Of a stretch of 64,000 nt of DNA, positions 42,817 to 61,338 are shown piece after piece (positions within the stretch are counted from its first letter, which is position 1; each line of letters begins with the position of its first letter). The stretch spans positions 10,673-74,672 of the forward strand of contig CAKPSF010000003.1 of the NCBI GenBank assembly GCA_934183305.1, written 5' to 3'. A program made the translations under genes and the position numbers. The notes beneath the pieces were generated by a model, which saw only the letters and a list, made by a program, of their open reading frames with translations, made no database searches and was not told the origin of the DNA. Source of the DNA: an uncultured Clostridia bacterium (GTDB taxonomy: Bacteria > Bacillota > Clostridia > TANB77 > CAG-508).

Positions 42817-45435
42817 CTATTGATTAGTCGTTGTATTTTCAACCGTATTTGATGGTGTAGGAGTTGGTGAAGGCGGAGTTTCAGCTTCTACCTTCACTGT
42901 CCTTGTAACCTTTGTAACATTTCCTGCACTATCATTTACAGTATATGTAATAGTATATGTTCCAGCAACTGCAGTATTTACAGTTCCTGTTATAATAATT
43001 TTTGATGTTAAATCTCCATCTTTATCATCTGTTGCTTTAGCGCCAAGTTCTGTATACTTTCCACCAACTTTTAATGTTATAGTTGCACTTCCATTTAATG
43101 TTATAACTGGTGGATTATTTTTTTCTTTGCAATTATCACAAGTTTCCTCTGGTAGCATATATTTTGCATCTCCAGCTTTTTGCCAGTTTGTATTATCTGT
43201 TGACCTTGTTATAAATATTTTAGTTTCTTTATTTTCGCAGTTTGGCCCAGCAACTTTTCCTGTTTCTTTACATATTTCAGCTTGAACATGGCAAGTACAA
43301 GTCTTAGTTGGTACTGTTCCTTTTACAAAATATTCAGAATACACTCTGCTTCCTCTTGGATCATTCTTGCAAGCATCAGTTGCAAGTAATCCTGAATCTT
43401 TACAAACATTTGCTGTAACTAATCCATCTGGTTTTTCAAAAGATTTTCCTTTCAAATCCTTATGTATAGCTGTCATAACGTTCTTCCAAATTGTATTGGC
43501 ATTAGACGTTGCACCAGCCGGTATAGCTGTTGGCGTATCATATCCATACCAAGTTGCTGCTGTATAATATGGCGTAAATCCGCAAAGCCATTTATCTTTT
43601 TTAGAGTTTGTTGTACCAGTTTTTGCTGCTGTTTCCATTCCAGATATCTTACAAGCTGACGCAGTTCCTCCTGTTTTAGTTGGTTCAGTTAATAACTGTT
43701 TAAGTATATATGCATTTTCTACTGAAAATACTCTGGTTTTTGGTTGATCAGCTTCTAAAACTGTATTTCCATTTTCATCAACCACTTTTGTATAGAATGT
43801 AGGAGTTATGTATTCTCCATCATTTGCAATAGCAGCATATGCTCCAGCCATTTGCAATGGCGAAATTCCTTCACTTATTCCTCCTAAAGCTAATGGTAAA
43901 CTATTATCTTTATCTGAGTCTATTGAAGTTACTCCTAACCTTTTCAAATATTCAATTGACTTAGCAGGTGTTAAATCTTCTAATACTTGAATAGCAATTG
44001 TATTTTGAGAAATTCTAACCGCTTGCCTCATATTTGATAATCCTTTAAATCCTGAATATGAATTTTTAGGTGTCCAAGTTCCATATTTTAATGGAACATC
44101 ATCATATACAGATGCAGCATTTATTATTCCTTCTTGTAATGCAGGTCCATATACTGCTATAGGTTTTATAGAAGATCCCGGTTGACGTTTTGCTTGATTT
44201 ACTCTGTTAAGTTTACCAGCTTCTTTTTCTCCCAATACGCCAACTGCCCCAACAACATATCCATTAGATTGATCAATAACTACCGTTGCAGACTGAGCAG
44301 CTTCTTTAACTTTTTGCAACTCTCCATCTACTTTTTTCTCAACAGTAGTTTTAACTTGATATTTTGATTTTGAATATTCATCCTCTAATTTTTCTTGAAT
44401 TGAAGCGACTTCTGTTGAATAAATCTTCAATCCACTACTATATAAATATGTTTCAGCATATTCAGCATTCATGCCCTTTTCTGTTACTAATTGGTTTATA
44501 ACTTGTTTAATTAATGCTTCTGTATGTGAAGAATATGAAGCTTTATCTATAATAGTTCCCTTTTTAAAGTTTAATCCTTTATCGACTTCTTCAATTGCAC
44601 TATTATATTCGTCTTTACTTATTTTTCCTTGATCAACCATTTGTTTTAAAACAGTTTTTGTTCTTTTGTTAATTTTGTCTGTTTTAGGTTCATCAACAAA
44701 TGGATTATATCCGTTAGGTGAGTGAGTTACTCCTGCAATAAACGCACTCTCAGCTAAGCTTAATTCTGTTGGTGTTTTGCTAAAATAATATTCAGATGCC
44801 ATTCCAACGCCATTTACGTTTCCACCTAAATAAATTATATTCATATATAGCTCTAATATTTGATCTTTAGATAGTATTTGCTCAACTTGATATGCTCTAA
44901 TCATTTCTTTAACTTTTCTTATTGCACCTTTTACTCCTGAATCATCTTTTTCTTTTGTTATATTTTTAACTAATTGTTGTGTTAAAGTACTTCCACCTCC
45001 AACAGATGATTCTCCTTTATGAAATATAAATGAAATGATAGCATACCCAGTTCTTGATATATCTACTCCATTGTGGCTATAAAACCTTTTATCTTCAATT
45101 GCCACAAATGCTTTAGGTAAATATTCTCCCATTTCGCTCTTGCTAAGTATTTTTCTGTTCTCTTTTCCACTTAGCACAGCTAAAACATTACCCTCTGAAT
45201 CAACAACGGTACTATTTGAATAATCAATTATTAAATCTTTTTTAGTTATTGCATATTTGCCTGCCATACCAAAAATAAGTCCAGCTCCAATTCCAGCAAG
45301 AACAATAATCAATACAATAATTGCTATTACTATTTTTTTCCATACTTTTTTCTTTTTAGTATTATTTTTATTATTTACTTTTTTTGTATTTTTTTCTTTT
45401 TTAGTATCATCTTTGGAATTTACAGTTTTTTTCAT
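42817..45435 (-). CDS. Class A penicillin-binding protein (PBP1A-type: transglycosylase plus transpeptidase) with C-terminal Ig-like domain
   Basis: GT51 motif FVAIEDKRFYSHNGVD, transpeptidase SxxK/SxN/KTG motifs, and a C-terminal beta-rich Ig-like domain with a PSPTPTPS tail. Confidence 0.9.
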   Translation of the reverse strand: MKKTVNSKDDTKKEKNTKKVNNKNNTKKKKVWKKIVIAIIVLIIVLAGIGAGLIFGMAGKYAITKKDLIIDYSNSTVVDSEGNVLAVLSGKENRKILSKSEMGEYLPKAFVAIEDKRFYSHNGVDISRTGYAIISFIFHKGESSVGGGSTLTQQLVKNITKEKDDSGVKGAIRKVKEMIRAYQVEQILSKDQILELYMNIIYLGGNVNGVGMASEYYFSKTPTELSLAESAFIAGVTHSPNGYNPFVDEPKTDKINKRTKTVLKQMVDQGKISKDEYNSAIEEVDKGLNFKKGTIIDKASYSSHTEALIKQVINQLVTEKGMNAEYAETYLYSSGLKIYSTEVASIQEKLEDEYSKSKYQVKTTVEKKVDGELQKVKEAAQSATVVIDQSNGYVVGAVGVLGEKEAGKLNRVNQAKRQPGSSIKPIAVYGPALQEGIINAASVYDDVPLKYGTWTPKNSYSGFKGLSNMRQAVRISQNTIAIQVLEDLTPAKSIEYLKRLGVTSIDSDKDNSLPLALGGISEGISPLQMAGAYAAIANDGEYITPTFYTKVVDENGNTVLEADQPKTRVFSVENAYILKQLLTEPTKTGGTASACKISGMETAAKTGTTNSKKDKWLCGFTPYYTAATWYGYDTPTAIPAGATSNANTIWKNVMTAIHKDLKGKSFEKPDGLVTANVCKDSGLLATDACKNDPRGSRVYSEYFVKGTVPTKTCTCHVQAEICKETGKVAGPNCENKETKIFITRSTDNTNWQKAGDAKYMLPEETCDNCKEKNNPPVITLNGSATITLKVGGKYTELGAKATDDKDGDLTSKIIITGTVNTAVAGTYTITYTVNDSAGNVTKVTRTVKVEAETPPSPTPTPSNTVENTTTNQ

Positions 45436-45609: not shown

Positions 45610-46152
45610 ATGTTTATATACAATTTTAAGGTAAATGGAAATGGGATTTTTAGAATAGTTGTAGTATTAATTATAATTATTGCATTACTGGTTATGGCAC
45701 TTTCAATGTATAATTTTTTTAAAAAAGGAAAAGTTATCGTAAATGATGATTTGCCAACTAATTCAATAGCAAATATCCAATCAAATCAATACACAAATAT
45801 ACTAAGAGAGGTTTATGAAGACATAGACACTTATATAGGTCAATCAATTAATTTTACTGGATATGTTTATAAACAATATGATTTAAAAGACACAGAATTT
45901 GTTTTAGCAAGAGATATGTTAATAAATTCAGATTCACAAACTGTAGTAGTTGGCTTCCTTTGTTCCTACGATAAAGCACAGAACTTTAAAGAAGGAACTT
46001 GGGTAAATGTTACTGGTAAAATTGTAAAAGGCTATTACCACAATGAAATCCCAGTAATTGATATAACCAAAATAGAAGAAACAAAAAAACCAGAAGATTG
46101 CTATGTGTATCCTCCAGCAGATACTTATATTCAAACTTCAACAATCCTTTAA
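45610..46152 (+). CDS. Hypothetical membrane-anchored protein (180 aa). It is the only plus-strand gene in the window.
   Basis: ATG 45610 with a GA-rich RBS, and an N-terminal TM (IFRIVVVLIIIIALLVMAL). Convergent with the AI-2E transporter gene. Confidence 0.4.
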   Translation: MFIYNFKVNGNGIFRIVVVLIIIIALLVMALSMYNFFKKGKVIVNDDLPTNSIANIQSNQYTNILREVYEDIDTYIGQSINFTGYVYKQYDLKDTEFVLARDMLINSDSQTVVVGFLCSYDKAQNFKEGTWVNVTGKIVKGYYHNEIPVIDITKIEETKKPEDCYVYPPADTYIQTSTIL

Positions 46153-46205: not shown

Positions 46206-47312
46206 TTATCTTCTATCCAAAATTGTTTTTACAACTCCATTATCTATCATAGTTTCAAATACGTTTTTCAGGATAATTAAAATTATCGGTCCAATAAACA
46301 TTCCTATTACCCCAATTGTTTTAAAGCCCGTATACATTGCTATTAATGTGAAAATTGGATGTATTCCAATATGATTACTTACAATTTTAGGCTCTATGAG
46401 TTGCCTTACAACAATTGTTACAACATACAAAACCAATACACCTATTGCCAACTTTATATCTCCGTTAAAGCCTGAAATAACCGCCCATGGCACCATTACA
46501 GTTCCTGAACCTAGTATTGGCAATGCATCAACAAATCCGATTACTAATGCCATAATTAAAGGATATTTCACGTTCATACCAATTAAATTAAATATAAGCA
46601 ATCCAGTAAGAACAATAACAAAGGATATTAATATTAAAATAGCCTCTGCCTTTAGGTAATTTCCTAAAGAAGAACTTACTTTTCTTAATTTGTTTCCAAT
46701 TTTTATTGTCCAATTTCTAGGCAAATGATGCTCCATTTGATCTAAAATATACATCTTGTCTGCACACACAAAATAAGTTGCAAGTATTGTTATTCCAGTA
46801 CATATTGCAATTTGAGGTAAGTGTTTAACTGTATTTATTACATATGTTAAAAGATTTTGGGCAATATCTTTTCCTACTTCAATTAATTCATTTACAGTAT
46901 TATTAGCTAAATCTTTAACCTGTTCTGGAATATTTAAAGAATCAAACTTAAAGCTATTTATTAATCCATTTATTTTAGAACTTATATTAGCAACATTATT
47001 ATTAAGTCCTGTTAAAATATTTGTAGACTCAGTTATTGCAACAGTAATCCCCCACGCCAGCAGCCCAATTATAATGCCAAATACAATAATTAAGGTTATA
47101 ATTGCACTAGCTTTTCTAGTAAAATTAGTAATTTTCATCACCTTTCTTATTAATGGTTCAATAAGCAAACTTATAATAAATGCAATTAAAAAAGGAACAT
47201 AATAAACAGAAAGTTTAAAAATTATGTATATAGCTACTAAAGTTAATATAAATATTAATAATCTTTTTCCAACCTTTTTGTAGTAATTCATATCTGTAAT
47301 CACGCAAATCAC
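46206..47312 (-). CDS. AI-2E family transporter
   Basis: Eight TM helices and UPF0118/AI-2E family layout. 368 aa. Confidence 0.7.
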   Translation of the reverse strand: MICVITDMNYYKKVGKRLLIFILTLVAIYIIFKLSVYYVPFLIAFIISLLIEPLIRKVMKITNFTRKASAIITLIIVFGIIIGLLAWGITVAITESTNILTGLNNNVANISSKINGLINSFKFDSLNIPEQVKDLANNTVNELIEVGKDIAQNLLTYVINTVKHLPQIAICTGITILATYFVCADKMYILDQMEHHLPRNWTIKIGNKLRKVSSSLGNYLKAEAILILISFVIVLTGLLIFNLIGMNVKYPLIMALVIGFVDALPILGSGTVMVPWAVISGFNGDIKLAIGVLVLYVVTIVVRQLIEPKIVSNHIGIHPIFTLIAMYTGFKTIGVIGMFIGPIILIILKNVFETMIDNGVVKTILDRR

Positions 47313-47413
47313 CTCAGTTTATTTTATGTATAATAGATGATTTTTATTAGAAGAATTTAAATTATTTTACAGGCAGGTACAAAACCTGCCCATACAGTCA
47401 TTATTTCTACAAA

Positions 47414-47860
47414 TTAAAATTTATTATTGTTGCAATCGCAAATATGTTCAAATGTTTTTCCTATACATTCACAATTAATATCTTGATGCTTTGCTAAATC
47501 TCCCAATGTTAATATTCCTACTAATTTTCCATTCTCTGTTACTGGTATTCTTCTTATTCCTGTTTGTCCCATATTCTTTGTAACAGTATCAATATCTTCA
47601 TTACAATCGCAGCAAGTTGTTTTGCATGTCATTATATCACTTGCTTTAGTATTTTTATTATCTTTTCCGCAAGCAACACTTCTTAATATAATATCTCTAT
47701 CTGTTAAAATTCCTACAACATTATTATTGCAATCACAAACAGGTATACATCCACATCCGTTTTCATGCATTAGTTTTGCAACATCACTTATATTAGTATC
47801 TGGTGTACAACTGCAAACATCCCCACACATACATTCTTTAACCTTCATAAAAAAATCCAC
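47414..47860 (-). CDS. CBS-pair domain protein with 17 Cys arranged mostly in CXC motifs
   Basis: Two CBS motifs (GCGCIPVCDCNNNVVGILTDRDI and IRRIPVTENGKLVGILTLGDL). CMC, CSC, CGC, CDC, CCDC, CEC and CDC motifs are interspersed. Confidence 0.6.
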   Translation of the reverse strand: MDFFMKVKECMCGDVCSCTPDTNISDVAKLMHENGCGCIPVCDCNNNVVGILTDRDIILRSVACGKDNKNTKASDIMTCKTTCCDCNEDIDTVTKNMGQTGIRRIPVTENGKLVGILTLGDLAKHQDINCECIGKTFEHICDCNNNKF

Positions 47861-47923
47861 CTTTCATAAAAAATATATATTTATTTTTTACAAAAAGAGG
47901 ATTTTTATTCTTAATTTATTTAC

Positions 47924-48559
47924 TTAATTTTCTAATTCTAAATCATTTTTAATTAAATGTGTAAATAGTGTTAAATATGATAAAGAAATCATAAATCCAG
48001 CAAGTACATCGCTTGCATAATGAACTCCTAAATAAATTCTACTTATTCCTATTGAAGCTATCAATATACTAAGAAAAGTACACAATGCAATTTTGGCATA
48101 TTTATTTTTCACATATTTAAATACTAAATATATTATTAATCCATAAAAAGCCATACTTGCCATTGAATGTCCAGATGGAAAACTAAAACCTGTTTCTTCA
48201 ACTAGCCTATATCCAACAGGTCTATTTCTTCTAATTATATTTTTAAGTAAAAGATTAAAAATTGCAGTGACAATTAAATTAATACTAATATACATGGGTA
48301 TTTTTTTGTTTTTTATAAATAAAAAACTTATAATACATATACTTATTAATGGTATACTACTTCCAAAGAAAGTTATAAATTTAAAAATATTATTTAAAGA
48401 ATTACTTTTAAATGAAATTATAAAGTTATATACTGTTGAATCAAAATTCATTATTTCATTATTTAAAACATCCTCTAACAAATCTAAAAATATTATCACA
48501 CAAAATAGTGCTAATATCCATCTTTTATTTTCCTTTAAAATACTTTTTATCTTTCCCAT
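47924..48559 (-). CDS. PAP2 family phosphatase
   Basis: KNIIRRNRP...PSGHS...SRIYLGVHYASD are the PAP2 motifs. Confidence 0.75.
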   Translation of the reverse strand: MGKIKSILKENKRWILALFCVIIFLDLLEDVLNNEIMNFDSTVYNFIISFKSNSLNNIFKFITFFGSSIPLISICIISFLFIKNKKIPMYISINLIVTAIFNLLLKNIIRRNRPVGYRLVEETGFSFPSGHSMASMAFYGLIIYLVFKYVKNKYAKIALCTFLSILIASIGISRIYLGVHYASDVLAGFMISLSYLTLFTHLIKNDLELEN

Positions 48560-48575
48560 ATATTGTGTTCCTTCT

Positions 48576-49085
48576 TTATTTCTTTATCCAATTGTTAAAT
48601 GCTTCAAATAATAGAATCAAGAAAATCATTATAAAAATTCCAGTTAAAACTCCTGCTGAATCAATACACACATCTCGAATGCTTGGTCCTCTGCCTGGCA
48701 CAAAACTTTGATGAAATTCATCTCCAGCAGCATATAAAACACCAATCAAAATACTCCATAGCAATTTGTACTTGTTTTTAATATCAAAAGTACACCAGAA
48801 TCCCATAACAGAAAATCCAACTAAACAATAAATACTAAAATGCGCTAATTTCCTAATTATTGGATGAAGTCTTTCTATGTAATGCATCCTAAGAGCTAAA
48901 TCCATATTTTTTACTTTTGAAAACATGTCTACAATAAAATTTGTAACCTTTAAGCTCAAGTTACCAGACTTCTCTCCATCTTGTGCAGAAAAACAAAATA
49001 TTAAATACAATGTTGCTAAAAGCATTACTATAAATAATATTCTTTTAAATATTAAATTCTTTTTAATTTTAATAGGTTTTGACAT
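48576..49085 (-). CDS. VanZ-like family protein
   Basis: Four TM segments and the conserved DEFHQSFVPGR motif. Confidence 0.65.
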   Translation of the reverse strand: MSKPIKIKKNLIFKRILFIVMLLATLYLIFCFSAQDGEKSGNLSLKVTNFIVDMFSKVKNMDLALRMHYIERLHPIIRKLAHFSIYCLVGFSVMGFWCTFDIKNKYKLLWSILIGVLYAAGDEFHQSFVPGRGPSIRDVCIDSAGVLTGIFIMIFLILLFEAFNNWIKK

Positions 49086-49102
49086 TATAATTCTTCCTTA
49101 AA

Positions 49103-50071
49103 TTAATTTAGCCATTCTTTATGTTCTAAATACCAATCAATAGTTTTTATTATCCCATCTTCAAATTTAGTTTCAGGAATCCATCCTAATTCATTATGAA
49201 TTTTCGTTGGGTCAATTGCATATCTAAAATCATGACCTTTTCTATCTTCAACAAATTCTATTAAGTCTTCAGATTTGCCTAATCTATTTAGTATTAATTT
49301 AACTATATCGATATTTCTCTTCTCATTATGTCCGCCAATATTATATCTTTCCCCAGCTTTACCATTGTGGAATACTAAATCTATTGCTTTACAATGATCT
49401 TCTACATATAGCCAATCTCTAATATTTTCGCCTGTTCCATATACAGGTAATTTTTCATTATTTAATGCTAACTTTATCATATGAGGAATTAATTTTTCAT
49501 TATGTTGATAAGGTCCATAATTATTTGAGCAATTTGTAACTGTTACATTCATTTTAAATGTTTCATGATATGCTAAAGCAATTAAATCTGAGCTTGCTTT
49601 TGAAGCTGAATATGGGCTATTAGGTTTAATAGGGCTAGTTTCTGTGAAATAACCTTCTTTGCCAAGTGTTCCATATACTTCATCAGTTGATATATGCACA
49701 AATTTATTTGAACTACCTTCTCCCCAAATTTGTTTTGCTGTTTCCAATAAAATATGTGTTCCAATTACATTTGTTTGTGTAAATACAAATGGTGTTTTTA
49801 TACTATTATCAACATGGCTTTCTGCTGCAAAATGTATTACTCCATCTATATCATATTCTTTAAATATATCCTTCATTTTTTCGAAATCACAAATATCAGC
49901 TTGTACAAATGTAATTTTATCCATTACATTTTTTAGATTTTCTATATTTCCTGCATATGTTAATTTATCTACAACAACAATATTATAATTTGGGTATTTA
50001 TTTACAAAATACTCTGCAAAATTTGCCCCAATAAATCCTGCTGCCCCTGTTACTAAAATATTCTTACTCAT
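49103..50071 (-). CDS. rfbB: dTDP-glucose 4,6-dehydratase
   Basis: ILVTGAAGFIGANF and YSASKASSD; 322 aa. Confidence 0.9.
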   Translation of the reverse strand: MSKNILVTGAAGFIGANFAEYFVNKYPNYNIVVVDKLTYAGNIENLKNVMDKITFVQADICDFEKMKDIFKEYDIDGVIHFAAESHVDNSIKTPFVFTQTNVIGTHILLETAKQIWGEGSSNKFVHISTDEVYGTLGKEGYFTETSPIKPNSPYSASKASSDLIALAYHETFKMNVTVTNCSNNYGPYQHNEKLIPHMIKLALNNEKLPVYGTGENIRDWLYVEDHCKAIDLVFHNGKAGERYNIGGHNEKRNIDIVKLILNRLGKSEDLIEFVEDRKGHDFRYAIDPTKIHNELGWIPETKFEDGIIKTIDWYLEHKEWLN

Positions 50072-50096
50072 TTTATTTCTCCCTAATACCTATTAA

Positions 50097-50675
50097 TTAT
50101 AAATTTTTAAACAAATCTGTTTTTCTTAATTCTTGCAATGTTGGCCATTTAGCATCTTTGTCAGATGTTAGTAATTCATTAACTTTCATATCTCCAAAAG
50201 GCCACTCTATATTTATCTCCTTATCATTCCATGCAAGACCGCCTTCAGCCTCATGATTATATATATCATCACATTTATATGTAAATTCTGCTTCATCTGA
50301 TAAAACCAAAAATCCATGTGCAAATCCTTTAGGAATCATAAACATTTTTTTATTTTCTTCTGAAAGTATAACACCTTCCCATTTTCCATATGTTTCACTT
50401 GATGGTCTTAAATCAACTGCAACATCAAACACTTCACCTTTTATACATCTAACAAGTTTTGCTTGAGTGTTTTCCTTCTGAAAATGTAAACCTCTTAATA
50501 CTCCCCTTCTTGATTTTGATTGATTATCTTGAACAAAATCATAATCAAGACCTATTTCTTCAAAATCTTTTTTACTATATGTTTCCATAAAGTATCCTCT
50601 ATTATCTCCAAAAACAGTTGGTTCAATAATATACACTCCATCAATTGATGTACCTATTTTTTTAAATTTCCCCAT
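50097..50675 (-). CDS. rfbC: dTDP-4-dehydrorhamnose 3,5-epimerase
   Basis: RmlC cupin motifs (RGLHFQ and FMIPKGFAHGF). Confidence 0.9.
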   Translation of the reverse strand: MGKFKKIGTSIDGVYIIEPTVFGDNRGYFMETYSKKDFEEIGLDYDFVQDNQSKSRRGVLRGLHFQKENTQAKLVRCIKGEVFDVAVDLRPSSETYGKWEGVILSEENKKMFMIPKGFAHGFLVLSDEAEFTYKCDDIYNHEAEGGLAWNDKEINIEWPFGDMKVNELLTSDKDAKWPTLQELRKTDLFKNL

Positions 50676-50690
50676 TTTTATCTCCTAAAA

Positions 50691-51569
50691 TTAATTTTCT
50701 TCTGCTAACGCAATTAAAAATTTTCCATAATCACTCTTTTTTAAATTTTGTGCAAGTTCTTGTAATTGTTCTTTATTTATCCAGCCATTTTCATAAGCAA
50801 TTTCTTCCGGGCAACAAATTTGCAACCCTTGTCTTTTTTGTATTGTCTGTACAAAGCTGGCAGTTTCTAAAAGTGAATCATGCGTTCCTGTATCAAACCA
50901 AGCCATTCCTCTTCCAAGTTTTTCTACCTTTAATTTATGCATATTCATATAAGCTTCATTTACACTTGATATTTCTAGTTCACCTCGTGCAGAAGGTTTA
51001 ATTGTTTTAGCAATTTCCACAACATCATTTGTATAAAAATATAGTCCTGGAACTGCATAATTTGATTTTGGAATTTCTGGTTTTTCTACTATTGAAATAG
51101 CATTGCCTTTTTCATCAATCTCAACAACTCCATATCTTCTTGGATCATTTACTCTATATCCAAAAATTGTTGCTTCTTCTGTTCTATTATTTACTCTTAT
51201 TAATATTTCTTTTAAATCCCCACCATAGAACAAATTATCACCTAAAATTAATGCAACATTAGAATCACCAATAAATTCTTCTCCAATAATAAATGCTTCT
51301 GCAAGTCCATTTGGATTTTCTTGTACTTTATACTCTAACTTTATTCCCCATTTAGAACCATCCCCAAGAAGTTCTTTAAATGTTACATTATCTCTTGGAG
51401 TTGTAATTATTAATATTTCTCTAATTCCAGCCTCCATTAAAACATATAATGGATAATAAATCATTGGCTTATCATATACCGGCATTATTTGTTTTGATAT
51501 TGCTATAGTTAATGGATATAATCTTGTTCCACTTCCACCTGCTAAAATTATTCCTTTTCTTTCTTTCAT
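50691..51569 (-). CDS. rfbA: Glucose-1-phosphate thymidylyltransferase
   Basis: [17 protein letters not shown]. Confidence 0.9.
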
Positions 51570-51571
51570 AT

Positions 51572-52417
51572 TTAATTCCTACTTTCTTTTTCTAAATATC
51601 TCATTAATGCTTCTTCATAGGTTGGTATTTTTATTCCTAATTTCAATAACTTATTCTTTGACATTTGTGAATTTTTAGGTCTTTTAGCTGGTCTAGGGAA
51701 CTCTTCCGTTGTTACTGGATTCACATTGCAATTTATATTTTGTAATTTATATATTAACTTTGTAAAGTCATACCATGTTGTGTATCCTATATTAGTTGAA
51801 TTATATATTCCATATGGAATATCTTTTTCTATTGCTTGATGAATTATCTTAGCTAAATCAACAGCATATGTTGGACTTCCATGTTGGTCATTTACAACAC
51901 TTACTTCATTTCTATCTTTTGCAAGATTTATCATAGTTCTAACAAAATTATTTCCTTCACCATAAAGCCATGCAGTTCTAAAAATATAATATTTGTCACA
52001 ATTTTGTTTAATAAAATTTTCTCCCTCAAGTTTTGTAGTCCCATATACTGCCTGTGGATTCTTTTCATCTTCTTCGCTATAGTCTTCATCAACTGGCTTG
52101 TCTCCACCGAAAACATAGTCTGTACTTATATGTATTAATGTAGAATCATTATTTTTTGCAGCAATTGACAAATTTTTAGGTCCAATAGCATTAATTTTAT
52201 ATGCCAATTCAGGTTGTTCTTCTGCTCTGTCAACTGCAGTATATGCAGCACAGTTAATAATATAACTTGGTTTTATTTTATTAATAAAATTACTCACTGC
52301 ATTTTCGTCTGTTATATCCAATTCTGCCACATCTGTGCAAATCAGTTCATTTTCTTTTAGTTCTTCTCTTACTGCTTTTGCAAGCATTCCATTAGCACCT
52401 GTAATTAAAATTTTCAT
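51572..52417 (-). CDS. rfbD: dTDP-4-dehydrorhamnose reductase
   Basis: [13 protein letters not shown]; RmlD-family length (281 aa). Confidence 0.85.
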
Positions 52418-52432
52418 AAATATTCCTCTAAA

Positions 52433-53884
52433 TTATTCCTTTATTTTTTTCTTTAATATACTCTTAAGTAATTCCAATAAATACTGAAACGAATCAATTT
52501 TTAAAATCTTTGCTCCAGCTATATATATTACTCCCCCAACAACAGCTTGAAACATAAGTGAGACAATTATAGGTAAATTAATAAATCCAATCAAGTATAC
52601 AATTACTCCCATAATTACTGCAAGTAAAAGGCTTGGTAATATGTCCCTTATCTGTTCTATATAACTATAATCAAGTAATTTCTTATTAGGCCAAGAATTA
52701 ATTATCTGTCCCAAAAGTCCACTTACAAGCAAACTGCAGGCCATTGCCATTGGACTAATATACATTGTTGCTAATAGAAGTAGTACGCCTATGATTTTTT
52801 TTATAATTTCCATTTTTAAAAACAAATCACTTCTTCCCATTGCTTTTATTGCATTAAGATTTGCTGTATGTATTGGATATAACATAAATGTTACACAAAA
52901 TACACACAAATATGGAACGCATTCCAACCACTTTTCTGTCAATAATAACGTAACAATGTTTTTCGATGCAAAAGTAAGTCCCATCATTAATGGAGCCATT
53001 ATAAATATACTCGTTTTTATTGCTCTTCTAGTCATATCTCTTACTCTAGATTTATTTTCTTGTTCATTTGACATTGTTGGCAATAGCACACTATCTATTG
53101 ATGTGTTTATGTTTGTTACTATTAAATTTGGAAACTGCTTACCTTTATTATAAAACGCCAAATCCGCAGAAGAATATATCTTACCTATTATTAATTGTCT
53201 TATATTTTCATAAGTTGTATCTAATAATGCAGAAGCTGATAATTTCCATCCATAAGAAAATAATTCTTTTAATCTCTTAAATGAAAACATTCTCTTTGGT
53301 CTCCACTTAACAGTTAGCCATAATACAATAGTGTCAACTGTCAAATTAAATAATTGTTGTATAACTAATGCCCATACTCCAAATCCTTTCACTGCCATTA
53401 AAATTCCAATAATAGCAGCTCCAATAGTTCCTGCGAGTGTAGCAAAAAAGAACTTTTTAAAAATTAGTTTCTTGGAAACATAGGCTTGTTGCACATTTTT
53501 TACTCCTGATATTACAATTGTAAGACTTAAAACTCGTATAAGTGTTACAAGTGAATCATCATTATAAAACCTTGCAATAGCTGGTGCACATAAAAATACT
53601 CCAACATATAAAAGCAAGCACACTGTTATATTGGCAAAGAATACTGTTGAAAAGTCCAAGTCGTCTACATCTTTTTTTTGAATCAAAGCATTACCTAATC
53701 CACTATCTACAAAAACTTGTAATATGTTTGTAAACACAGTAATTAAAGCAATTGTTCCATAAGCTTCTGGAGCTAAAATTCTTGCAAGTACAATTGATAC
53801 AATAAATGAAACGATCTGTGCTCCACATCTTTCAGCAAATCTCCATATTACATTTGAAAATACATTTTGTTTTGAATTATCCAT
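52433..53884 (-). CDS. Polysaccharide flippase (Wzx/MOP superfamily)
   Basis: 483 aa with about 12-14 TM segments in the Wzx layout. Confidence 0.7.
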   Translation of the reverse strand: MDNSKQNVFSNVIWRFAERCGAQIVSFIVSIVLARILAPEAYGTIALITVFTNILQVFVDSGLGNALIQKKDVDDLDFSTVFFANITVCLLLYVGVFLCAPAIARFYNDDSLVTLIRVLSLTIVISGVKNVQQAYVSKKLIFKKFFFATLAGTIGAAIIGILMAVKGFGVWALVIQQLFNLTVDTIVLWLTVKWRPKRMFSFKRLKELFSYGWKLSASALLDTTYENIRQLIIGKIYSSADLAFYNKGKQFPNLIVTNINTSIDSVLLPTMSNEQENKSRVRDMTRRAIKTSIFIMAPLMMGLTFASKNIVTLLLTEKWLECVPYLCVFCVTFMLYPIHTANLNAIKAMGRSDLFLKMEIIKKIIGVLLLLATMYISPMAMACSLLVSGLLGQIINSWPNKKLLDYSYIEQIRDILPSLLLAVIMGVIVYLIGFINLPIIVSLMFQAVVGGVIYIAGAKILKIDSFQYLLELLKSILKKKIKE

Positions 53885-53899
53885 ATTATATTCCTTTAA

Positions 53900-55003
53900 T
53901 TATTTCTTTAAAATTATATCACAAATTCTATTCGCATCTTCCACAGAAAGATTTGCATACATCGGTATCGTTAACACTCTATCTGATATTTTCTTTGCAA
54001 TAGGAGTCTTGGCAGAATCAAATCTATCCTTATAACAATCATAATCTGATATTAGTGGATAGAAATATTTTCTTGAAAAAATATTTTCTTTTGCAAGTTC
54101 TTCTGCCACTTCATCTCTCGTCTTTCCAAATACCGTTTCATCAAATATTACAGGATAGTATGCAAAATTTGGTTTCACTCCTTTTTGTTTCTTAGAGATA
54201 GTAATTCCCGGAACTCCAGATAGCCTTTCTGTATATATATCATATACTTTTTTTCTCTTTGCAATTTCTTCATCAAAATGTCTTAAATTACATAACCCCA
54301 TTGCAGCTTGAAATTCATTCATTTTAGAATTGATTCCAACATCCACAACATGTTCTTGGTCTATTATTCCAAAGTTTTTGAAACTATCAATTGATTGTTT
54401 CAACTCTGAATTATTGTAAACTAAAGCTCCTCCCTCAATAGTATTAAATACTTTTGTTGCATGGAAGCTAAACATCGAAATATCTCCATAGCTTCCTATT
54501 CCTCTTCCATTTACTTCAACTCCAAAAACATGAGCTGCATCATAAATAACCTTTAAATTATGTTTTTGTGCTATTTGCTCAATTGCTTCAACATCACAAA
54601 TATGCCCATACACATGAACTGGTACTATAGCTGTTGTTTTATCTGTAATTAACTCTTCTATTTTATTTACATCTATTGTATAGTCTTGCTCATTTATATC
54701 ACAGAATACAGGAGTTAATCCATTTTGTACTATTGCATGTGTTGTAGATGCAAAAGAAAAAGGTGTAGTAATTACTTCTCCAGACAAATTCATTTTATGA
54801 ATTGCTGTATATAAAGCAAAATGTCCATTATTAAATAATGATATATTTTTCACTTTTAATTTTTCACATAATTTTTCTTCAAGTTCATGGTGCTTAGTTC
54901 CCATATTTGTAAGCCATCTTGAATCAAAAACATCTTTTATTTCGTTACTGTATTCTTCAAGTGTTGGTATTGAAGATTGTGTTACTAAAATTTTTTTATT
55001 CAT
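53900..55003 (-). CDS. DegT/DnrJ/EryC1/StrS family PLP-dependent sugar aminotransferase
   Basis: FSFHATKVFNTIEGGAL is the Lys-bearing PLP motif. 367 aa. Confidence 0.85.
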   Translation of the reverse strand: MNKKILVTQSSIPTLEEYSNEIKDVFDSRWLTNMGTKHHELEEKLCEKLKVKNISLFNNGHFALYTAIHKMNLSGEVITTPFSFASTTHAIVQNGLTPVFCDINEQDYTIDVNKIEELITDKTTAIVPVHVYGHICDVEAIEQIAQKHNLKVIYDAAHVFGVEVNGRGIGSYGDISMFSFHATKVFNTIEGGALVYNNSELKQSIDSFKNFGIIDQEHVVDVGINSKMNEFQAAMGLCNLRHFDEEIAKRKKVYDIYTERLSGVPGITISKKQKGVKPNFAYYPVIFDETVFGKTRDEVAEELAKENIFSRKYFYPLISDYDCYKDRFDSAKTPIAKKISDRVLTIPMYANLSVEDANRICDIILKK

Positions 55004-55004
55004 C

Positions 55005-56006
55005 TTATCTACCTCTTAATTCTAGAAATCTATCAACTTTCATTTCTTCTTTATAATCTTCTAATAATTCTTTAATTCCATATTTAGGCTCATATCCAAG
55101 TTCTTCCTTGGCATTTGTTATATCTAGTGCAAATCCACCACTATTCTTTTTTTCAGGGCAGTAAATAATCTCTGAAGGATTATCTTTTGGTGAAAACACC
55201 TCTACTATTGTTCTTACTTTCTCTTCCAATGTTACTGGTTTTCCAGTTCCAATATTATAAAAGCCACCATCTCTATTAGCTTCTATCGCCTTACATAATT
55301 CTTGGCTAAAATCATATACATGAACCATATCTGTTGAATAATTTGGATCTCCCCATATTTCAAGTGGCTCACTATTTTGGGCTTTTTCTATCATTCTATA
55401 AATTGGTCTTAATGTTTTTACTCCATTTGGATGATAATAATGATATGGACTATAACTATATATTGTAGGTAGTCTAAATACAAAGTCTTTAATTCCATAT
55501 TCAGCATGATAATGTTTCAATAATTCAATTGCAGTATTTTTAGTTATAACATATAAAGCATGATCACCTTTATAACTAAAATTTAATGGAGTGTCAGGTT
55601 TTAACATTACACCATCTTTTGCAGATAAAGATATATCAAAAACAGTGGTTGTATATAATATTCTGTCAGCTTTAACTTTTCTAGCATATTCACAAACATT
55701 AAAAGCCCCCACAATATTTGAATTAATATATTTTTCGGGTTGATATCCTTCCATATAAGATGGAATTTGCGCCGCAAGCAATATAACAGCATAAACATTG
55801 TCTGTTGGTAATTTTTCAAAATCTGTAGCACAACTAATGTCTACACTATAATATTTTATACCTTTTTTGGTAAAAAAATCTGTGTTTCTTCTTCCAGATG
55901 CAATTATTTCATACTCATCATTATTAAAATATTCAAGTGCATATTTTGTAAAATAACTTCCTACATTTCCACAAGCTCCAAAAATTATTATTTTTTTCTT
56001 ATTCAT
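55005..56006 (-). CDS. NAD-dependent epimerase/dehydratase (extended SDR)
   Basis: IIIFGACGNVGSY and YVITK (YxxxK). Confidence 0.75.
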   Translation of the reverse strand: MNKKKIIIFGACGNVGSYFTKYALEYFNNDEYEIIASGRRNTDFFTKKGIKYYSVDISCATDFEKLPTDNVYAVILLAAQIPSYMEGYQPEKYINSNIVGAFNVCEYARKVKADRILYTTTVFDISLSAKDGVMLKPDTPLNFSYKGDHALYVITKNTAIELLKHYHAEYGIKDFVFRLPTIYSYSPYHYYHPNGVKTLRPIYRMIEKAQNSEPLEIWGDPNYSTDMVHVYDFSQELCKAIEANRDGGFYNIGTGKPVTLEEKVRTIVEVFSPKDNPSEIIYCPEKKNSGGFALDITNAKEELGYEPKYGIKELLEDYKEEMKVDRFLELRGR

Positions 56007-56010
56007 ACTT

Positions 56011-56952
56011 TTATATCTCCTTTACAATTTTAATTATTTTATCCATTTCCTCTATTCCATATCGCTGGTCACATGGTAATGGTAATATATTTTTTGCAAA
56101 ATCATAAGCATTACTGTTCTTATTATCTTTTATTACATTTGGCCACAAAATTGGTACAAAAATATTCTTATCTATTAACTTTTTTCTTAGATTTTCAGCA
56201 TTATCTATGTATAAAGGATATGAATATGCACCACTCACATTTTTTAAATTTAGTTTGTTTAATTTATTCAATTTTTCATTTAAGTATTTAAAATTTTGGG
56301 TTCTTTTTTTCTTTATTTTTCCATAATCAAAGGCTCCCAACATGTTTTCTGTAGATTTTGACATCTTCAATAACGGAATTTTTTCTAATACTTCTTCATT
56401 TTCTCTATACATGTTATAGTATTGTTGTGGTGTTTCCTCAAGTCTTCCAAGTATATAGGTAAATCTGTTCTTTGATTGGTCTCGTTCTATTTTCTCTAAT
56501 GAAGTTATATCTGTATATAAATACGCACCATCTGGTACCCCCATAAACTTTCTACATGAATATATTGTATCAACGCCTCGTACTGGTAACTGGAAAAACG
56601 CTTGAACATTATCTATAATAATATTTTTATAAATTTTTTTCAACCTTTTTATTATATAATTACTTAGCTGTCCAAAATAATTTACAATATATATATACTC
56701 ACTATTATTTAATTTTTTATTGAATTCTGGTAAAAATTCATCATTTATATCATAGTATTCAACTTCACAATAATCTAATATTACATTTACCGAATCACAT
56801 AAATAATACGGCATATAGATTTTTTTTATTTTCTTACTCTTTGCTAAATACACCAAACAATTTCTTGCACTATTCAATTTAAGTGCATTTCTATGATATG
56901 GCTGATTAATTAAACTTTCCAATTCAAAATATCCACCTATATTTTCTTTCAT
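56011..56952 (-). CDS. Hypothetical protein in the polysaccharide locus (WbqC-like suspected)
   Basis: N-terminal GGYFELE. No assignable motif. Confidence 0.3.
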   Translation of the reverse strand: MKENIGGYFELESLINQPYHRNALKLNSARNCLVYLAKSKKIKKIYMPYYLCDSVNVILDYCEVEYYDINDEFLPEFNKKLNNSEYIYIVNYFGQLSNYIIKRLKKIYKNIIIDNVQAFFQLPVRGVDTIYSCRKFMGVPDGAYLYTDITSLEKIERDQSKNRFTYILGRLEETPQQYYNMYRENEEVLEKIPLLKMSKSTENMLGAFDYGKIKKKRTQNFKYLNEKLNKLNKLNLKNVSGAYSYPLYIDNAENLRKKLIDKNIFVPILWPNVIKDNKNSNAYDFAKNILPLPCDQRYGIEEMDKIIKIVKEI

Positions 56953-56962
56953 ATATTCCTCT

Positions 56963-58162
56963 TTATTTTAATATTACTTTAATATAATTTTCTTGATTGT
57001 TTAACACTTCATCCATTCGTTTATGATTGTCAAACTTTAATACTATGGTTCCAATAGCCTCATTTGCTCCAGAAAATCCACCAACTTTTGTTCCTTCTTC
57101 TATCCATAAATCATTTTCTACAATATTTGAACTGATTTCATCCGAAATCCATAATTTTTCAAAAGTTCCCTCTCTCTCACTATGAAGAATAATTTCAGCC
57201 CAATTATCTTTTATCTCCTGTTGTTCAATCGCATCTGGTTCCATACCTAGCGCAACTTTCACAATATTTGTTATCATATCCACTCCAGTTATATATCTGA
57301 CCATCTCTGCCAATCTATTTCCTCCACCTCTTGGAGAGCATTCCATTATATATGATTTTCCATTAGTGCATTCTCTAGTTTCAATATTATAAATAGAACT
57401 CTTCATATTAAGTAAACTTAATAGTCTTTGTATTTCATTTGTAAGTTCTTCCTGATTTTCTCTCGATATCGATGCAGGCCATGTATACGCTGCAGGAGTA
57501 TATGGATTCTCACAGTTTTCATCAAACTTTTGTGCAGAAAAAGATACAAACTTTAATTTCCCATCAATTGAAAAAGAATCACAATCTGATGAATCTCCCA
57601 CTTTTTCTAAGAAGTCCTCTATTATAAATTCATTACTATGTGAAAACTTTAGAGCATAATTTATAGCATCTTCTAATTTATCCTTTTCTTCTACTTTAGT
57701 CACACCCTTGCTTCCAGCTGAATCTGTTGGTTTAACTATCACAGGCCAATTAAACATATCAATATCATTTAATGCAGTTTCAAGGTCTGTGTACTCCTTT
57801 GCAACAGGAACATTAAAGTTATTATCTGTTAAAAATTTTCTAAACTTTCCTTTATTTTGTAATATTTCGATAGATTCATAAGGTCCAGAAGATGGTAATT
57901 TCATCTTTTCTGCGACATAAGCTGCTGTTGCTACTCCCGGATCACAAGCAAACGAAAGAATTCCATCTATTTTTAACTCTTTAGCTTTTTCAAGAACCTT
58001 ATCCTTTTCAAGAATGCTAACATTACAGTATTCGTCCGAATACTTGTGTGCAATATTGTTTGGTAAATAATCACAAGTAATTACATAAACACCTAGCTTA
58101 TGTGCTGCTTCTATAACAGGAACAAGATACCTCATTCCTCCAAGTAACATTAATTTTTTCAT
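56963..58162 (-). CDS. ATP-grasp domain enzyme
   Basis: Pre-ATP-grasp plus ATP-grasp layout (KPTDSAGSKGV and ECSPRGGG). 399 aa. Confidence 0.65.
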   Translation of the reverse strand: MKKLMLLGGMRYLVPVIEAAHKLGVYVITCDYLPNNIAHKYSDEYCNVSILEKDKVLEKAKELKIDGILSFACDPGVATAAYVAEKMKLPSSGPYESIEILQNKGKFRKFLTDNNFNVPVAKEYTDLETALNDIDMFNWPVIVKPTDSAGSKGVTKVEEKDKLEDAINYALKFSHSNEFIIEDFLEKVGDSSDCDSFSIDGKLKFVSFSAQKFDENCENPYTPAAYTWPASISRENQEELTNEIQRLLSLLNMKSSIYNIETRECTNGKSYIMECSPRGGGNRLAEMVRYITGVDMITNIVKVALGMEPDAIEQQEIKDNWAEIILHSEREGTFEKLWISDEISSNIVENDLWIEEGTKVGGFSGANEAIGTIVLKFDNHKRMDEVLNNQENYIKVILK

Positions 58163-58186
58163 ATATTTATCTCTCCCTCATTATTT

Positions 58187-59155
58187 TTATCTATGTTTTA
58201 TCTTTAACTTTTCTTTTTTTAGTATTTCAAATATAAATGGTACTTTTTCTTTTAGTAAAATTTTTATCCTTTTACTTTTAGGAAGGTTATTTTTATATGA
58301 TAAATATGGTTCTTGTTTTATCATTTCAAAATTATTTTCTAAATAATATATATTAAATTCTAATTCAATAATTTTTCTATTTATTGCGTCATTATATTTT
58401 CCATTTGTATATTCATTAATTTCTTTTAACTTTTTAACAATTTCTTTATTTATTTTTATATTTTTGCTTTCATCATTTATTATTTTATCTGTCCATGATG
58501 AGCCTGTATTAATTCTATATGCAGCCATTTGTTCTTTAAAACAATATGTTTTTCCTATACTTGATAAAAAAATCTGCCATAAATAATCCATAGAAAAATT
58601 ATTAAAATATCCAGGTAACTGTTCAATATATTCCATTCTTGAAAAAATAGAATTTGTAGCTACATATTCTCCTCCACCTAAAATAAAATCTTCACATGTT
58701 AAAGTTATGTTATTATCTACTGTATTTATTTCTCCAACTTTATTTTTATTATTATCTACAATGATTGCATTTGTCACACACATTGAATATTCGTCATTTG
58801 CTTCCATAAAATCAAATTGCTTTTGAAGTTTATTTGTATCCGTCCAATAATCGTCTCCTTCACAAATTGCAAAATATTTTCCCTTTGCCTGTGGCATTAA
58901 AATATCTATAAGCATTCTTCTATGTTTTGAATATTGATTTTCTTTCTGAAAAATTGGTTTTATTATTTGAGGATATCTTTCAGCATATTCTTTAATAATT
59001 TGCGCTGTAGAATCAGTAGAACAATCATCATTAATTATAATTTCATATTTAAAATTAACCTTTTGATTTATAAAACTATCTAACGCATCTTTTATATACT
59101 TTTCGTGATTATATGCCAAGCATAAAATAGATACCATTATTTTTTCTTCATTCAT
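58187..59155 (-). CDS. Family 2 glycosyltransferase
   Basis: VSILCLAYNHEKYI...DDCSTD. Confidence 0.8.
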   Translation of the reverse strand: MNEEKIMVSILCLAYNHEKYIKDALDSFINQKVNFKYEIIINDDCSTDSTAQIIKEYAERYPQIIKPIFQKENQYSKHRRMLIDILMPQAKGKYFAICEGDDYWTDTNKLQKQFDFMEANDEYSMCVTNAIIVDNNKNKVGEINTVDNNITLTCEDFILGGGEYVATNSIFSRMEYIEQLPGYFNNFSMDYLWQIFLSSIGKTYCFKEQMAAYRINTGSSWTDKIINDESKNIKINKEIVKKLKEINEYTNGKYNDAINRKIIELEFNIYYLENNFEMIKQEPYLSYKNNLPKSKRIKILLKEKVPFIFEILKKEKLKIKHR

Positions 59156-59168
59156 TTTTGTTTTTCTC

Positions 59169-61321: not shown

Positions 61322-61338
61322 TTTTCACTTTTCCTTTT

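Follow-up and report, generated by a model that had tools for sequence, protein, structure and literature searches.

CBS pairs are very widespread regulatory modules that are known almost exclusively as sensors of adenosyl ligands. This raises the question of what such a pair may do in an uncultured Clostridia bacterium in which it contains cysteine more often than any other residue. The gene in question lies on the minus strand of a 64,000-nucleotide stretch of contig CAKPSF010000003.1 (assembly GCA_934183305.1; the whole stretch is referred to as the window), and a first-pass annotation, made from the letters alone, had read its product as a metal-sensing, redox-sensing or metal-buffering module. 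Our results support this proposal in part, in that the cysteines prove to be conserved and selected for, whereas the binding of metal itself is deduced from the sequence. We tentatively favor the view, at a probability of roughly 40%, that the protein is a sporulation-linked Bateman module that has been turned into a thiolate metal or metal-cluster site and may sense or buffer the metal or redox state of the spore.

The gene and its putative translation start are located as follows:

47414 to 47848, minus strand: coding sequence of the cysteine-rich stand-alone CBS pair, 144 amino acids plus stop codon, most likely starting with the ATG at 47848
47857 to 47864, minus strand: putative ribosome-binding site AAAGGTGG, 8 nt before the ATG, with a GGTGG/GGAGG counterpart in homologous loci

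The open reading frame (ORF) originally described, without mention of its strand, as encoding 148 residues spans positions 47414 to 47860 of the minus strand and indeed yields a protein of that length with 17 cysteines when read from a GTG. The likely product, however, is shorter. The true start is most likely the ATG at 47848, 12 bases downstream of the GTG, which gives 144 residues and retains all 17 cysteines, because an equivalent MKVK start is common to all 80 homologous loci, preceded at 7-9 nt by a ribosome-binding site of the form GGTGG/GGAGG. The GTG at 47860 is thus probably an artefact of the ORF finder.

Cysteine makes up 11.8% of the protein (17/144), compared with a mean of 1.09% over the window's long ORFs, and no other ORF of the window approaches it in cysteine density (P(>=17 Cys) = 6e-13 against the window ORF background). 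The sequence contains one CC and seven CxC motifs (CMC, CSC, CGC, CDC, CDC, CEC and CDC), as against 1.9 CxC motifs expected after shuffling of the same composition (P = 5e-4), and aromatic residues are scarce (2 Phe, zero Trp or Tyr). The cysteine count and the motifs listed in the first-pass annotation are thereby confirmed, as are the two CBS motifs, which are detected as two stretches by Pfam PF00571 (94.5 bits versus a cutoff of 24, E = 4.6e-27). The same Pfam scan reported CBS only, with no further domain and no Fer4 match. Conservation in more than 500 genomes rules out an artefactual ORF, and a ranthipeptide/SCIFF-like precursor was ruled out as well, given a folded domain without a radical-SAM neighbor gene.

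A homologue search over 5.8 billion proteins returned 517 matches at E <= 1e-5, mostly 144-146 residues in length with a few shorter or longer proteins among the 120 matches listed, and at least 525 species genomes, scanned at one genome per species, encode a relative. The best 80 loci, on which the analysis of gene neighborhoods was based, stem nearly all from metagenome-assembled genomes of uncultured gut Clostridia (humans, rabbits, mice, deer and other animals), and one of them (L001) encodes a homologue with 97% identity to the window protein. For the analysis of cysteine placement, we aligned 233 cysteine-rich (>=8 Cys) and 19 low-cysteine (<=5 Cys) relatives pooled from the homologue, profile-based and representatives searches. 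Nine core positions are occupied by cysteine in 76-100% of the cysteine-rich homologues and kept down to approximately 45% identity, namely C6 (98%), C8 (91%), C12 (76%), C34 (92%) and C38 (100%) in the first CBS motif and, further downstream, C60 (86%), C80 (86%), C137 (99%) and C139 (92%).

The remaining positions differ in their spread. Based on cysteine placement, the family falls into three subtypes: subtype A, to which the window protein belongs, is marked by C14, C79 and C82; subtype B by C13, C78, C130, C45 and C104; and subtype C is a minimal form with 8-10 cysteines. C14 is a cysteine in 49% of all cysteine-rich homologues and in 92% of subtype A, and the cysteines around the start of the second motif (C75, 67%; C79, 52%; C80, 86%; C82, 36% over all subtypes) reach 73-99% within subtype A. 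C126 (18%) and C128 (27%) are variable, and C32 and C40 (2% each) are shared by the window protein with only its nearest relatives. Among relatives with 40-50% identity, the cysteine pattern fades, leaving proteins of the same length with 0-2 cysteines and a C-terminal '..E.IS.P' helix.

Gains and losses of cysteine were counted on a neighbour-joining tree made without the cysteine columns. Most core positions show 2-13 inferred changes (C137, 2; C6, 5; C38, 6; C80, 7), with C12 (21) as the exception, and peripheral cysteines were gained over and over (14 times at position 43, 12 times at position 13 and 11 times at position 57). Because the core is conserved across the 233 homologues and extra cysteines arose repeatedly, the alignment indicates that the cysteines are under selection rather than subject to drift, the latter being the outcome that the first-pass annotation had named as its refutation and that would have left homologues without conserved cysteines. 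The recurrent gains, moreover, suggest ongoing selection for thiol density. Given this selection, it is reasonable to assume a function based on thiols, be it the binding of metal, a metal cluster or redox chemistry.

How the cysteines may serve such a function depends on their position in the fold, which, as modeled, is that of an ordinary stand-alone CBS pair (Bateman module). The AlphaFold2 (AF2) model, obtained with a 49-sequence alignment, has a predicted local distance difference test score of 93.1 and a predicted template-modeling (TM) score of 0.84, and its DSSP assignment follows the order beta1-alpha1-beta2-beta3-alpha2 twice, as expected, with a C-terminal helix at residues 126-137. 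In a Foldseek search against the PDB, the top matches were ordinary stand-alone CBS pairs (9z6r, Rv2626c/HRP1, ST2348, PH0107 and TA0289), with TM scores of 0.74-0.93 to solved CBS pairs, root-mean-square deviations of 1.3-1.8 Å and 29-38% identity. The ribose motif G-h-h-T/S-x-x-D/N is intact in both halves of the protein (GILTDRD, residues 46-52; GILTLGD, residues 111-117), with T49, D50, R51 and D52 invariant and T114 and D117 conserved to at least 90%. In the canonical Bateman architecture, each cavity is walled by the linker before beta1 (with beta1), by beta2 of the same motif and by beta3 and the first alpha2 turns of the other motif; this last wall carries the ribose motif, and the h-y-y'-h'-P motif and a linker Thr are found at the adenine pocket (PMC6429129). 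The cysteine-bearing segments of the window protein are predicted to take the following places in this architecture:

47807 to 47833, minus strand: linker and beta1 of CBS1, residues 6-14 (CMCGDVCSC), with cysteines 6, 8, 12 and 14 in register; block 1 of one cavity
47729 to 47755, minus strand: beta2 of CBS1, residues 32-40 (CGCIPVCDC), with C34 and C38 conserved; block 2 of the same cavity
47603 to 47626, minus strand: linker and beta1 of CBS2, residues 75-82 (CKTTCCDC); block 1 of the second cavity
47432 to 47473, minus strand: C-terminal helix, residues 126-139 (CECIGKTFEHICDC), which begins with a variable CEC and ends with a conserved CxC (C137, C139)

When the sequence is compared with the published architecture, C6, C8, C12, C14, C34 and C38 fall into both blocks that make up the adenine pocket of one cavity and C75, C79, C80 and C82 into the first block of the other; both C45 and C104 of subtype B map to the walls of this second cavity. 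The cysteines would thus reside in cavity-walling segments, with side chains that may face the cavities. C60 (47669-47671), judging from the alignment, is probably part of a third thiol group with C137-x-C139, which also includes the variable C126 and C128. Within each block, the cysteines occupy the same register (6, 8, 12 and 14; 32, 34, 38 and 40; 75, 79 and 80, 82) and therefore lie on one face of an extended chain, and residues 34-38 are indeed assigned to a strand by DSSP. The same spacing prevails family-wide, with 3.5 cysteine pairs per protein at i+2 and 2.1 at i+4, and CxxC is rare (0.48 per protein).

The residues that the cysteines replace may be gauged from the low-cysteine relatives, which have I/V/L at position 6, T/S at 8, A at 12, V/I at 14, S/A at 34, C/V at 38, E/A/S/D at 60, T/S at 75, T at 79, V/C/A at 80, P at 82 and S at 137. 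Because most of the replacements are small or isosteric, the fold should be spared. At the adenine pocket of CBS1, P16 is kept, the pocket positions are taken by C12 and C14, and the linker Thr, which is the ribose-fixing Thr of one cavity, is replaced by C8. At that of CBS2, T74 is kept and the proline of the h-y-y'-h'-P motif has become C82. One cavity retains T74, T49 and D52.

These observations suggest a scheme in which small or hydrophobic residues of the adenine pockets were replaced by in-register cysteines on a Bateman fold that kept both ribose motifs. The thiolates of the two cavities and of the third group could serve as ligands of metal ions or of a metal-sulfur cluster in or beside the cleft between the CBS motifs, with zinc, iron, copper or an Fe-S type cluster as candidates. 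The module might then report or buffer the metal or redox state of the developing or germinating spore, instead of or besides the state of an adenosyl ligand, and it may work together with the membrane protein YtvI, whose gene follows its own. The sequence features and their conservation, the predicted fold, the gene linkage and the enrichment of promoter motifs are observations; what we infer is the direction in which the cysteine side chains face, the binding of metal, the compartment in which the gene is expressed and a contact with YtvI, if any.

The same cysteines could also act without metal, as a thiol-disulfide device that senses oxidation or serves as a sacrificial thiol buffer in the spores of a strict anaerobe, which meet air on the way from host to host. 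Their conservation and recurrent gain would fit this idea equally, as would the association of the gene with the forespore or spore. In addition, two redox-linked kinds of stand-alone CBS proteins, CBS-CP12 and plant CBSX, appear among the sequence and fold matches, and CxC, the dominant motif, forms strained and reactive disulfides. However, many of the conserved cysteines stand where ordinary CBS pairs usually have I/V, S or A, at buried or pocket-lining sites, so that multiple disulfides would strain the fold. Moreover, the protein has no thioredoxin-type CxxC, and there is no conserved thioredoxin or disulfide-reductase gene next to it in the 80 loci and the window. We consider a purely redox-active device unlikely.

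It is still less probable, in our view, that the protein is an ordinary sensor of AMP, ATP, SAM or a similar adenosyl ligand whose cysteines are chemically silent and, at most, constitute a cysteine or sulfur reserve freed by breakdown of the spore protein at outgrowth. The two intact G-h-h-T-x-x-D motifs and the retention of T74, T49 and D52 in one cavity point in this direction, and so does the fact that most cysteines stand for small residues (S, T, A, V). The peripheral cysteines, in particular, shift between neighboring positions (13/14, 78/79 and 126/128/130), as would be expected if composition mattered rather than geometry. Yet neutral drift would not hold nine positions at 76-100% cysteine over hundreds of species and three subtypes, nor would it account for repeated and independent gains, and a genome-wide bias is not apparent, since the other window ORFs contain 1.1% cysteine. 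Finally, the substitutions of the ribose-fixing Thr by C8 and of the motif proline by C82 both alter canonical ligand contacts.

Among characterized proteins, the closest relative in a sporulating organism is B. subtilis YhcV (verified by exact look-up as YHCV_BACSU), which is 36% identical to the window protein over 138 of its 144 residues (E = 2e-30), including the C-terminal helix. Like YhcV and YlbB, the window protein has approximately 140 residues, two CBS motifs and a short C-terminal helix; its gene has a forespore-type promoter-like motif and sporulation-gene neighbors. Unlike YhcV, which has zero cysteines, it contains 17 of them, and the '..IS.P' ending has changed to 'IC.C', with C137 in place of Ser. 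Expression of yhcV depends on sigma-G, and dormant spores contain its product in abundance (PMC6568419); the paralogous gene, ylbB, is under the control of sigma-F (PMC6568419, PMC3416734). The kinship to YhcV is one of sequence similarity, short of established orthology, and the CBS protein 9z6r from the non-sporulating Burkholderia is as similar to the window protein (38% identity) as YhcV. The closest structures are those of Rv2626c/HRP1 and other stand-alone pairs (PDB 1xkf, 1y5h, 9z6r, 4fry and 2ef7; sequence matches at E = 8e-22 to 2e-16). Two zinc ions are present in one crystal form of HRP1, as the title of the entry states; pairs of this type differ from the window protein in that they are not cysteine-rich, have hydrophobic-lined cavities and lack a sporulation context. 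Collectively, it is well supported that the gene belongs to a large uncharacterized cysteine-rich clade whose relatives are stand-alone pairs of the YhcV/HRP1 type.

A combination of a CBS pair with a cysteine metal site has a precedent in TA0289-type proteins (1pvm, 2qh1 and 3ghd), which carry a rubredoxin-like Zn-ribbon, occupied by Fe2+ in 2qh1, and whose fold match covers 137 residues including the helix after CBS2. In these proteins, the metal site is formed by CxxC pairs in a separate C-terminal Zn-ribbon, whereas the cysteines of the window protein are located inside the CBS motifs. Membership in this group was rejected, as there is no Zn-ribbon domain, only 24 residues follow CBS2, and C79-C80-D81-C82 is the sole CxxC. 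The ferredoxin motif CxxCxxCxxxC(P) is also absent from the sequence, although an Fe-S cluster could conceivably be ligated in a non-canonical way.

Metallothioneins are small disordered peptides with approximately 25-35% cysteine, and the copper storage proteins of the Csp family present their thiols on a stable preformed four-helix bundle. The window protein shares with them the dense CxC/CC motifs, the scarcity of aromatic residues and the repeated gain of cysteine, although this analogy is one of principle only, its fold being a Bateman module unlike the Csp bundle. The term metallothionein-like, used in the first-pass annotation, hence holds for the CxC spacing but not for the protein as a whole, which is a folded module with 12% cysteine rather than a disordered peptide with ~30%; with 144 residues, 11.8% cysteine and a confident alpha/beta fold, it was not assigned to the metallothioneins. 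A c-di-AMP receptor of the CbpB/DarB type was rejected as well (NF041630, 16.6 bits versus a cutoff of 125). NCBIfam contains no dedicated family and returned only generic CBS regions of larger proteins (PrdR, IMPDH, the DS11 anti-phage protein and CbpB), far below their cutoffs.

In the literature, which was searched for cysteine-rich, Fe-S and metal-binding CBS pairs as well as for CBS proteins of spores, no account of this cysteine-rich family came up. As far as we found, neither the thiol-lined cavities nor the conserved pairing with ytvI described below have been reported, although the scaffold and the probable cellular context are familiar. In C. pasteurianum, the abundance of F502_13258, a 'CBS domain-containing protein' that may or may not be a member of the cysteine-rich family, changes 1.7- to 4.8-fold with iron availability in proteomics data, where it is listed beside CotJC and SpoVT (PMC5395762).

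The link to sporulation emerges from the gene neighborhood, which includes the following genes in the window:

46206 to 47303, minus strand: ytvI, encoding an AI-2E family sporulation integral membrane protein (TIGR02872, 273.1 bits versus a cutoff of 198.15; PF01594, E = 4.9e-48), with a GTG at 47303 (MITDMNYY) as its probable start
45610 to 46152, plus strand: gene for a short membrane-anchored DUF1980_C/TIGR03943-like protein (PF21537, E = 4e-29; TIGR03943, 80 bits versus a cutoff of 88.8)

The flanking genes named in the first-pass annotation, one for a PAP2 phosphatase (PF01569, E = 1.6e-20) and one for an AI-2E transporter, were both recovered. Its statement that the CBS gene stands alone between them applies to the window, where the gene looks monocistronic, but not to its evolution. 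After clustering of the ORFs of the 80 loci and the window, the next gene after that of the CBS protein proved to be of the AI-2E family and of the same strand in 71 of the 78 informative loci, whereas the upstream neighbor and the genes further downstream vary widely. Because this pairing is conserved, the gene does not stand alone in evolutionary terms. Its partner, ytvI, is a member of the sigma-E regulon and of the core sporulation gene set, and a B. subtilis null mutant sporulates at 14% efficiency (PMC3416734, PMC3533761, PMC4703394). Neither the sporulation context nor the kinship to YhcV had been noticed in the first-pass annotation.

The pair extends beyond subtype A. It is present in subtype B (P0352), with ytvI split into two ORFs, at P0308, an 8-cysteine form outside the three subtypes, and in subtype C (P0388; L085/L086), in which the two genes are separated by a gap of only 16 nt and hence would be co-transcribed as an operon. 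With 264.7 bits in L085 and 278.9 bits in L087, the partner genes there also exceed the TIGR02872 cutoff. A further connection is seen in L088 (4366-5444), where the CBS gene (P0350, 14 cysteines, without C6, C8 and C34) is not upstream of ytvI but lies 14 nt downstream of gerW/ytfJ, a sigma-F sporulation gene (TIGR02874, 163 bits versus a cutoff of 116); the contig ends 140 nt past the CBS gene. The genetic tie between the CBS gene and sporulation is thus well supported.

Other features of the neighborhood were recorded alongside. The DUF1980_C protein matches the C-terminal half only of TIGR03943/DUF1980, and its family occurs near ytvI in 57 of 81 loci (the 80 related loci and the window), in either orientation. 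The split ytvI of subtype B consists of two overlapping ORFs of 279 and 96 amino acids in two independent assemblies (L083/L084, 6530-7628); the gene is frameshifted or a pseudogene, or else the assemblies are in error. In many related genomes, a protein of ~185-210 residues with a Tyr-rich N-terminus and a Pro-rich C-terminus, without Pfam or NCBIfam match, is encoded directly upstream of the CBS gene, usually after murD (L012, 3080-3724, and its equivalents, in 29 of the 80 loci; L085, 5400-5951); it is missing from the window, which has PAP2 and VanZ genes in its place. The neighbor families of the related loci otherwise resemble housekeeping genes, as judged by eye rather than by a scan.

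Additional information on expression may be drawn from the intergenic regions, in which the following elements were identified:

47882 to 47910, minus strand: forespore-type (sigma-F/G-like) promoter-like motif GAATA-N17-AAAAATA upstream of the CBS gene, a consensus match
47321 to 47349, minus strand: mother-cell-type (sigma-E-like) promoter-like motif TAATA-N16-CATAAAAT before ytvI, a consensus match
47372 to 47390, minus strand: stem-loop GGCAGGT-TTTGT-ACCTGCC, just past the stop codon of the CBS gene

All promoter calls come from consensus matching, in DNA of ~20% GC, and were treated as soft evidence. The general pattern upstream of the CBS genes is G(H)AT(R)-N17-18-(C/A/T)AHWHTA, and the same geometry is observed in L083 (subtype B, GTATA-N17-AAAAATA) and L085 (subtype C, GTATA-N17-CATACTT). 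When related upstream sequences are grouped into 39 independent clusters, 13-16 of these have a forespore-type motif at a distance of 20-80 nt from the ATG, compared with 8.5% of AT-rich controls (P ~1e-5), with the strict forespore consensus in only 7-8 of 79 CBS upstream regions. Sigma-E/K motifs are essentially absent from these regions (0-4/79), and a scan for sigma-70 promoters gave no matches above the shuffled expectation. The CBS gene may thus be expressed in the forespore, in line with sigma-G-dependent yhcV. Upstream of ytvI, by contrast, many loci have a motif of the form GAATA/TAATA-N15-16-CATA(A/C)AAT, and the pattern [GT][ACT]ATA-N14-19-CATA[AC]A occurs in 22 of 75 ytvI upstream regions, in none of the 79 CBS upstream regions and in 3% of AT-rich controls. 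The ytvI motif resembles the mother-cell sigma-E/K type in the ATA of its -35 element and in a -10 box similar to those known from C. difficile, CATATTAT and CATATAAT (PMC3789822).

The stem-loop at 47372 to 47390 could be a weak terminator or, alternatively, a hairpin that stabilizes the 3' end; it has no T run and fails the terminator criteria, and no canonical terminator was found. In many homologous loci, the corresponding position is taken by a hairpin of another sequence. A search of Rfam with positions 47150-48050 gave only sub-threshold miRNA noise and no riboswitch or leader.

The conserved pairing could also mean that the CBS protein is a trans-acting cytoplasmic subunit that docks on YtvI and gates it, with the cysteines tuning the interaction, an idea that overlaps with the metal-thiolate reading except that control of YtvI would be the main task. 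CBS pairs commonly regulate transporters (PMC6429129), as the fused pairs of MgtE, CNNM/CorC, ClC and OpuA do, and trans-acting CBS proteins are represented by DarB/CbpB. With these systems, the window protein shares the genetic coupling of a Bateman module to a membrane protein of a transport family, the make-up of the cavities and the motif G-h-h-T/S-x-x-D/N. The persistence of the pair amid varying flanks and its recurrence in subtypes B and C, at a distance of 16 nt in L085/L086, would agree with such a role. In contrast to the MgtE, CNNM/CorC, ClC and OpuA systems, however, the module described here is a separate polypeptide and its partner an AI-2E/YtvI protein. We know of no CBS regulation of proteins of the AI-2E/YtvI type, and in B. 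subtilis, yhcV is not known to be linked to ytvI. Both in the window and in many other loci, moreover, ytvI is preceded by a hairpin and by a mother-cell-type motif of its own, whereas the CBS gene has the forespore-type motif, suggesting that the two proteins are made in different compartments. The CBS gene is also kept in two lineages without ytvI and adjoins gerW/ytfJ instead in L088. Direct gating of YtvI thus appears improbable.

A role as a disulfide-cross-linked component of the spore envelope, like CotY/ExsY, CsxA, CdeC and CdeM, would suit a cysteine-rich, sporulation-associated protein in Clostridia, where cysteine-rich envelope proteins are common, but it is very improbable, given that envelope proteins are mother-cell (sigma-E/K) products, whose motifs are found upstream of only 0-4 of 79 CBS genes against an enrichment of forespore-type ones, that the closest characterized relative, yhcV, is sigma-G dependent (PMC6568419) and that the protein has a soluble ligand-binding fold with intact ligand motifs and no self-assembly features that we could see.

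Several observations weigh against our proposal of a sporulation-linked thiolate site and account for our caution. As for the site, the sequence contains no classical Zn-ribbon, ferredoxin or thioredoxin motif, its lone CxxC being the one at C79-C80-D81-C82, and the family alignment has no conserved His beside the cysteines. Covariation among the cysteines is weak evidence for spatial clusters: the raw co-occurrence is high for positions 45-104 (phi 0.91, subtype B), 14-79 (phi 0.81) and 78-130 (phi 0.80), but only 3-4 co-changes fall on the same branch once the tree is taken into account. As for the context, ytvI was lost from between the CBS gene and the DUF1980_C gene in two subtype C lineages that kept both (L081, 6001-7100; L089, 384-1423), none of the 13 window ORFs scanned is a further sporulation gene, and the ability of the organism to sporulate is suggested by the neighbor genes only. 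The forespore-type motif is found in only a third of the independent lineages, in DNA of ~20% GC. Finally, if the CBS gene is expressed in the forespore and ytvI in the mother cell, for which the motif before ytvI and the situation in B. subtilis speak, their products would reside in different compartments and could not touch.

In a bolder form, the proposal would hold that the adenosyl cavities have been remade as polynuclear metal-thiolate or non-canonical Fe-S sites and that the family represents an undescribed forespore class of metal- or redox-sensing CBS proteins controlling or working with YtvI, which we regard as doubtful on the evidence of the sequences. In that case, metal or redox state would be linked to spore formation or germination in gut anaerobes. 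A family in hundreds of species with thiol-lined pockets would also widen the ligand repertoire of CBS pairs to metals, metal clusters or redox signals. Moreover, the family offers a way into the function of two sporulation genes, those for yhcV-like CBS proteins and ytvI, which belong to the core set but have remained opaque. It does so in gut Clostridia that are uncultured and have small genomes, and about whose sporulation and passage between hosts little is understood.

A few further observations concern the rest of the window. Nearly all genes of the window lie on the minus strand. Within the part from 46206 to 63979, as judged by eye from their translations, those at 49103-52417 look like dTDP-rhamnose (rmlBCAD-type) genes, after which a long polysaccharide biosynthesis cluster appears to continue to the end of the window. 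Positions 42817-45435 (minus strand) encode a class A penicillin-binding protein (transglycosylase plus transpeptidase) whose C-terminal extension comprises a cysteine-rich stretch, a Bact_surface_Ig-like domain (PF16403) and a Pro/Thr-rich tail. The second most cysteine-rich product among the window ORFs is a DUF5131 protein (PF07505) of 275 amino acids with 12 cysteines (460-1287, minus strand). An unusual combination is found at 14791-16215 (minus strand), where a 474-residue protein joins a CTP-synthase N-terminal-like region (PF06418, residues 30-240) to a Ham1/RdgB non-canonical NTP pyrophosphatase (PF01725, residues 282-461).

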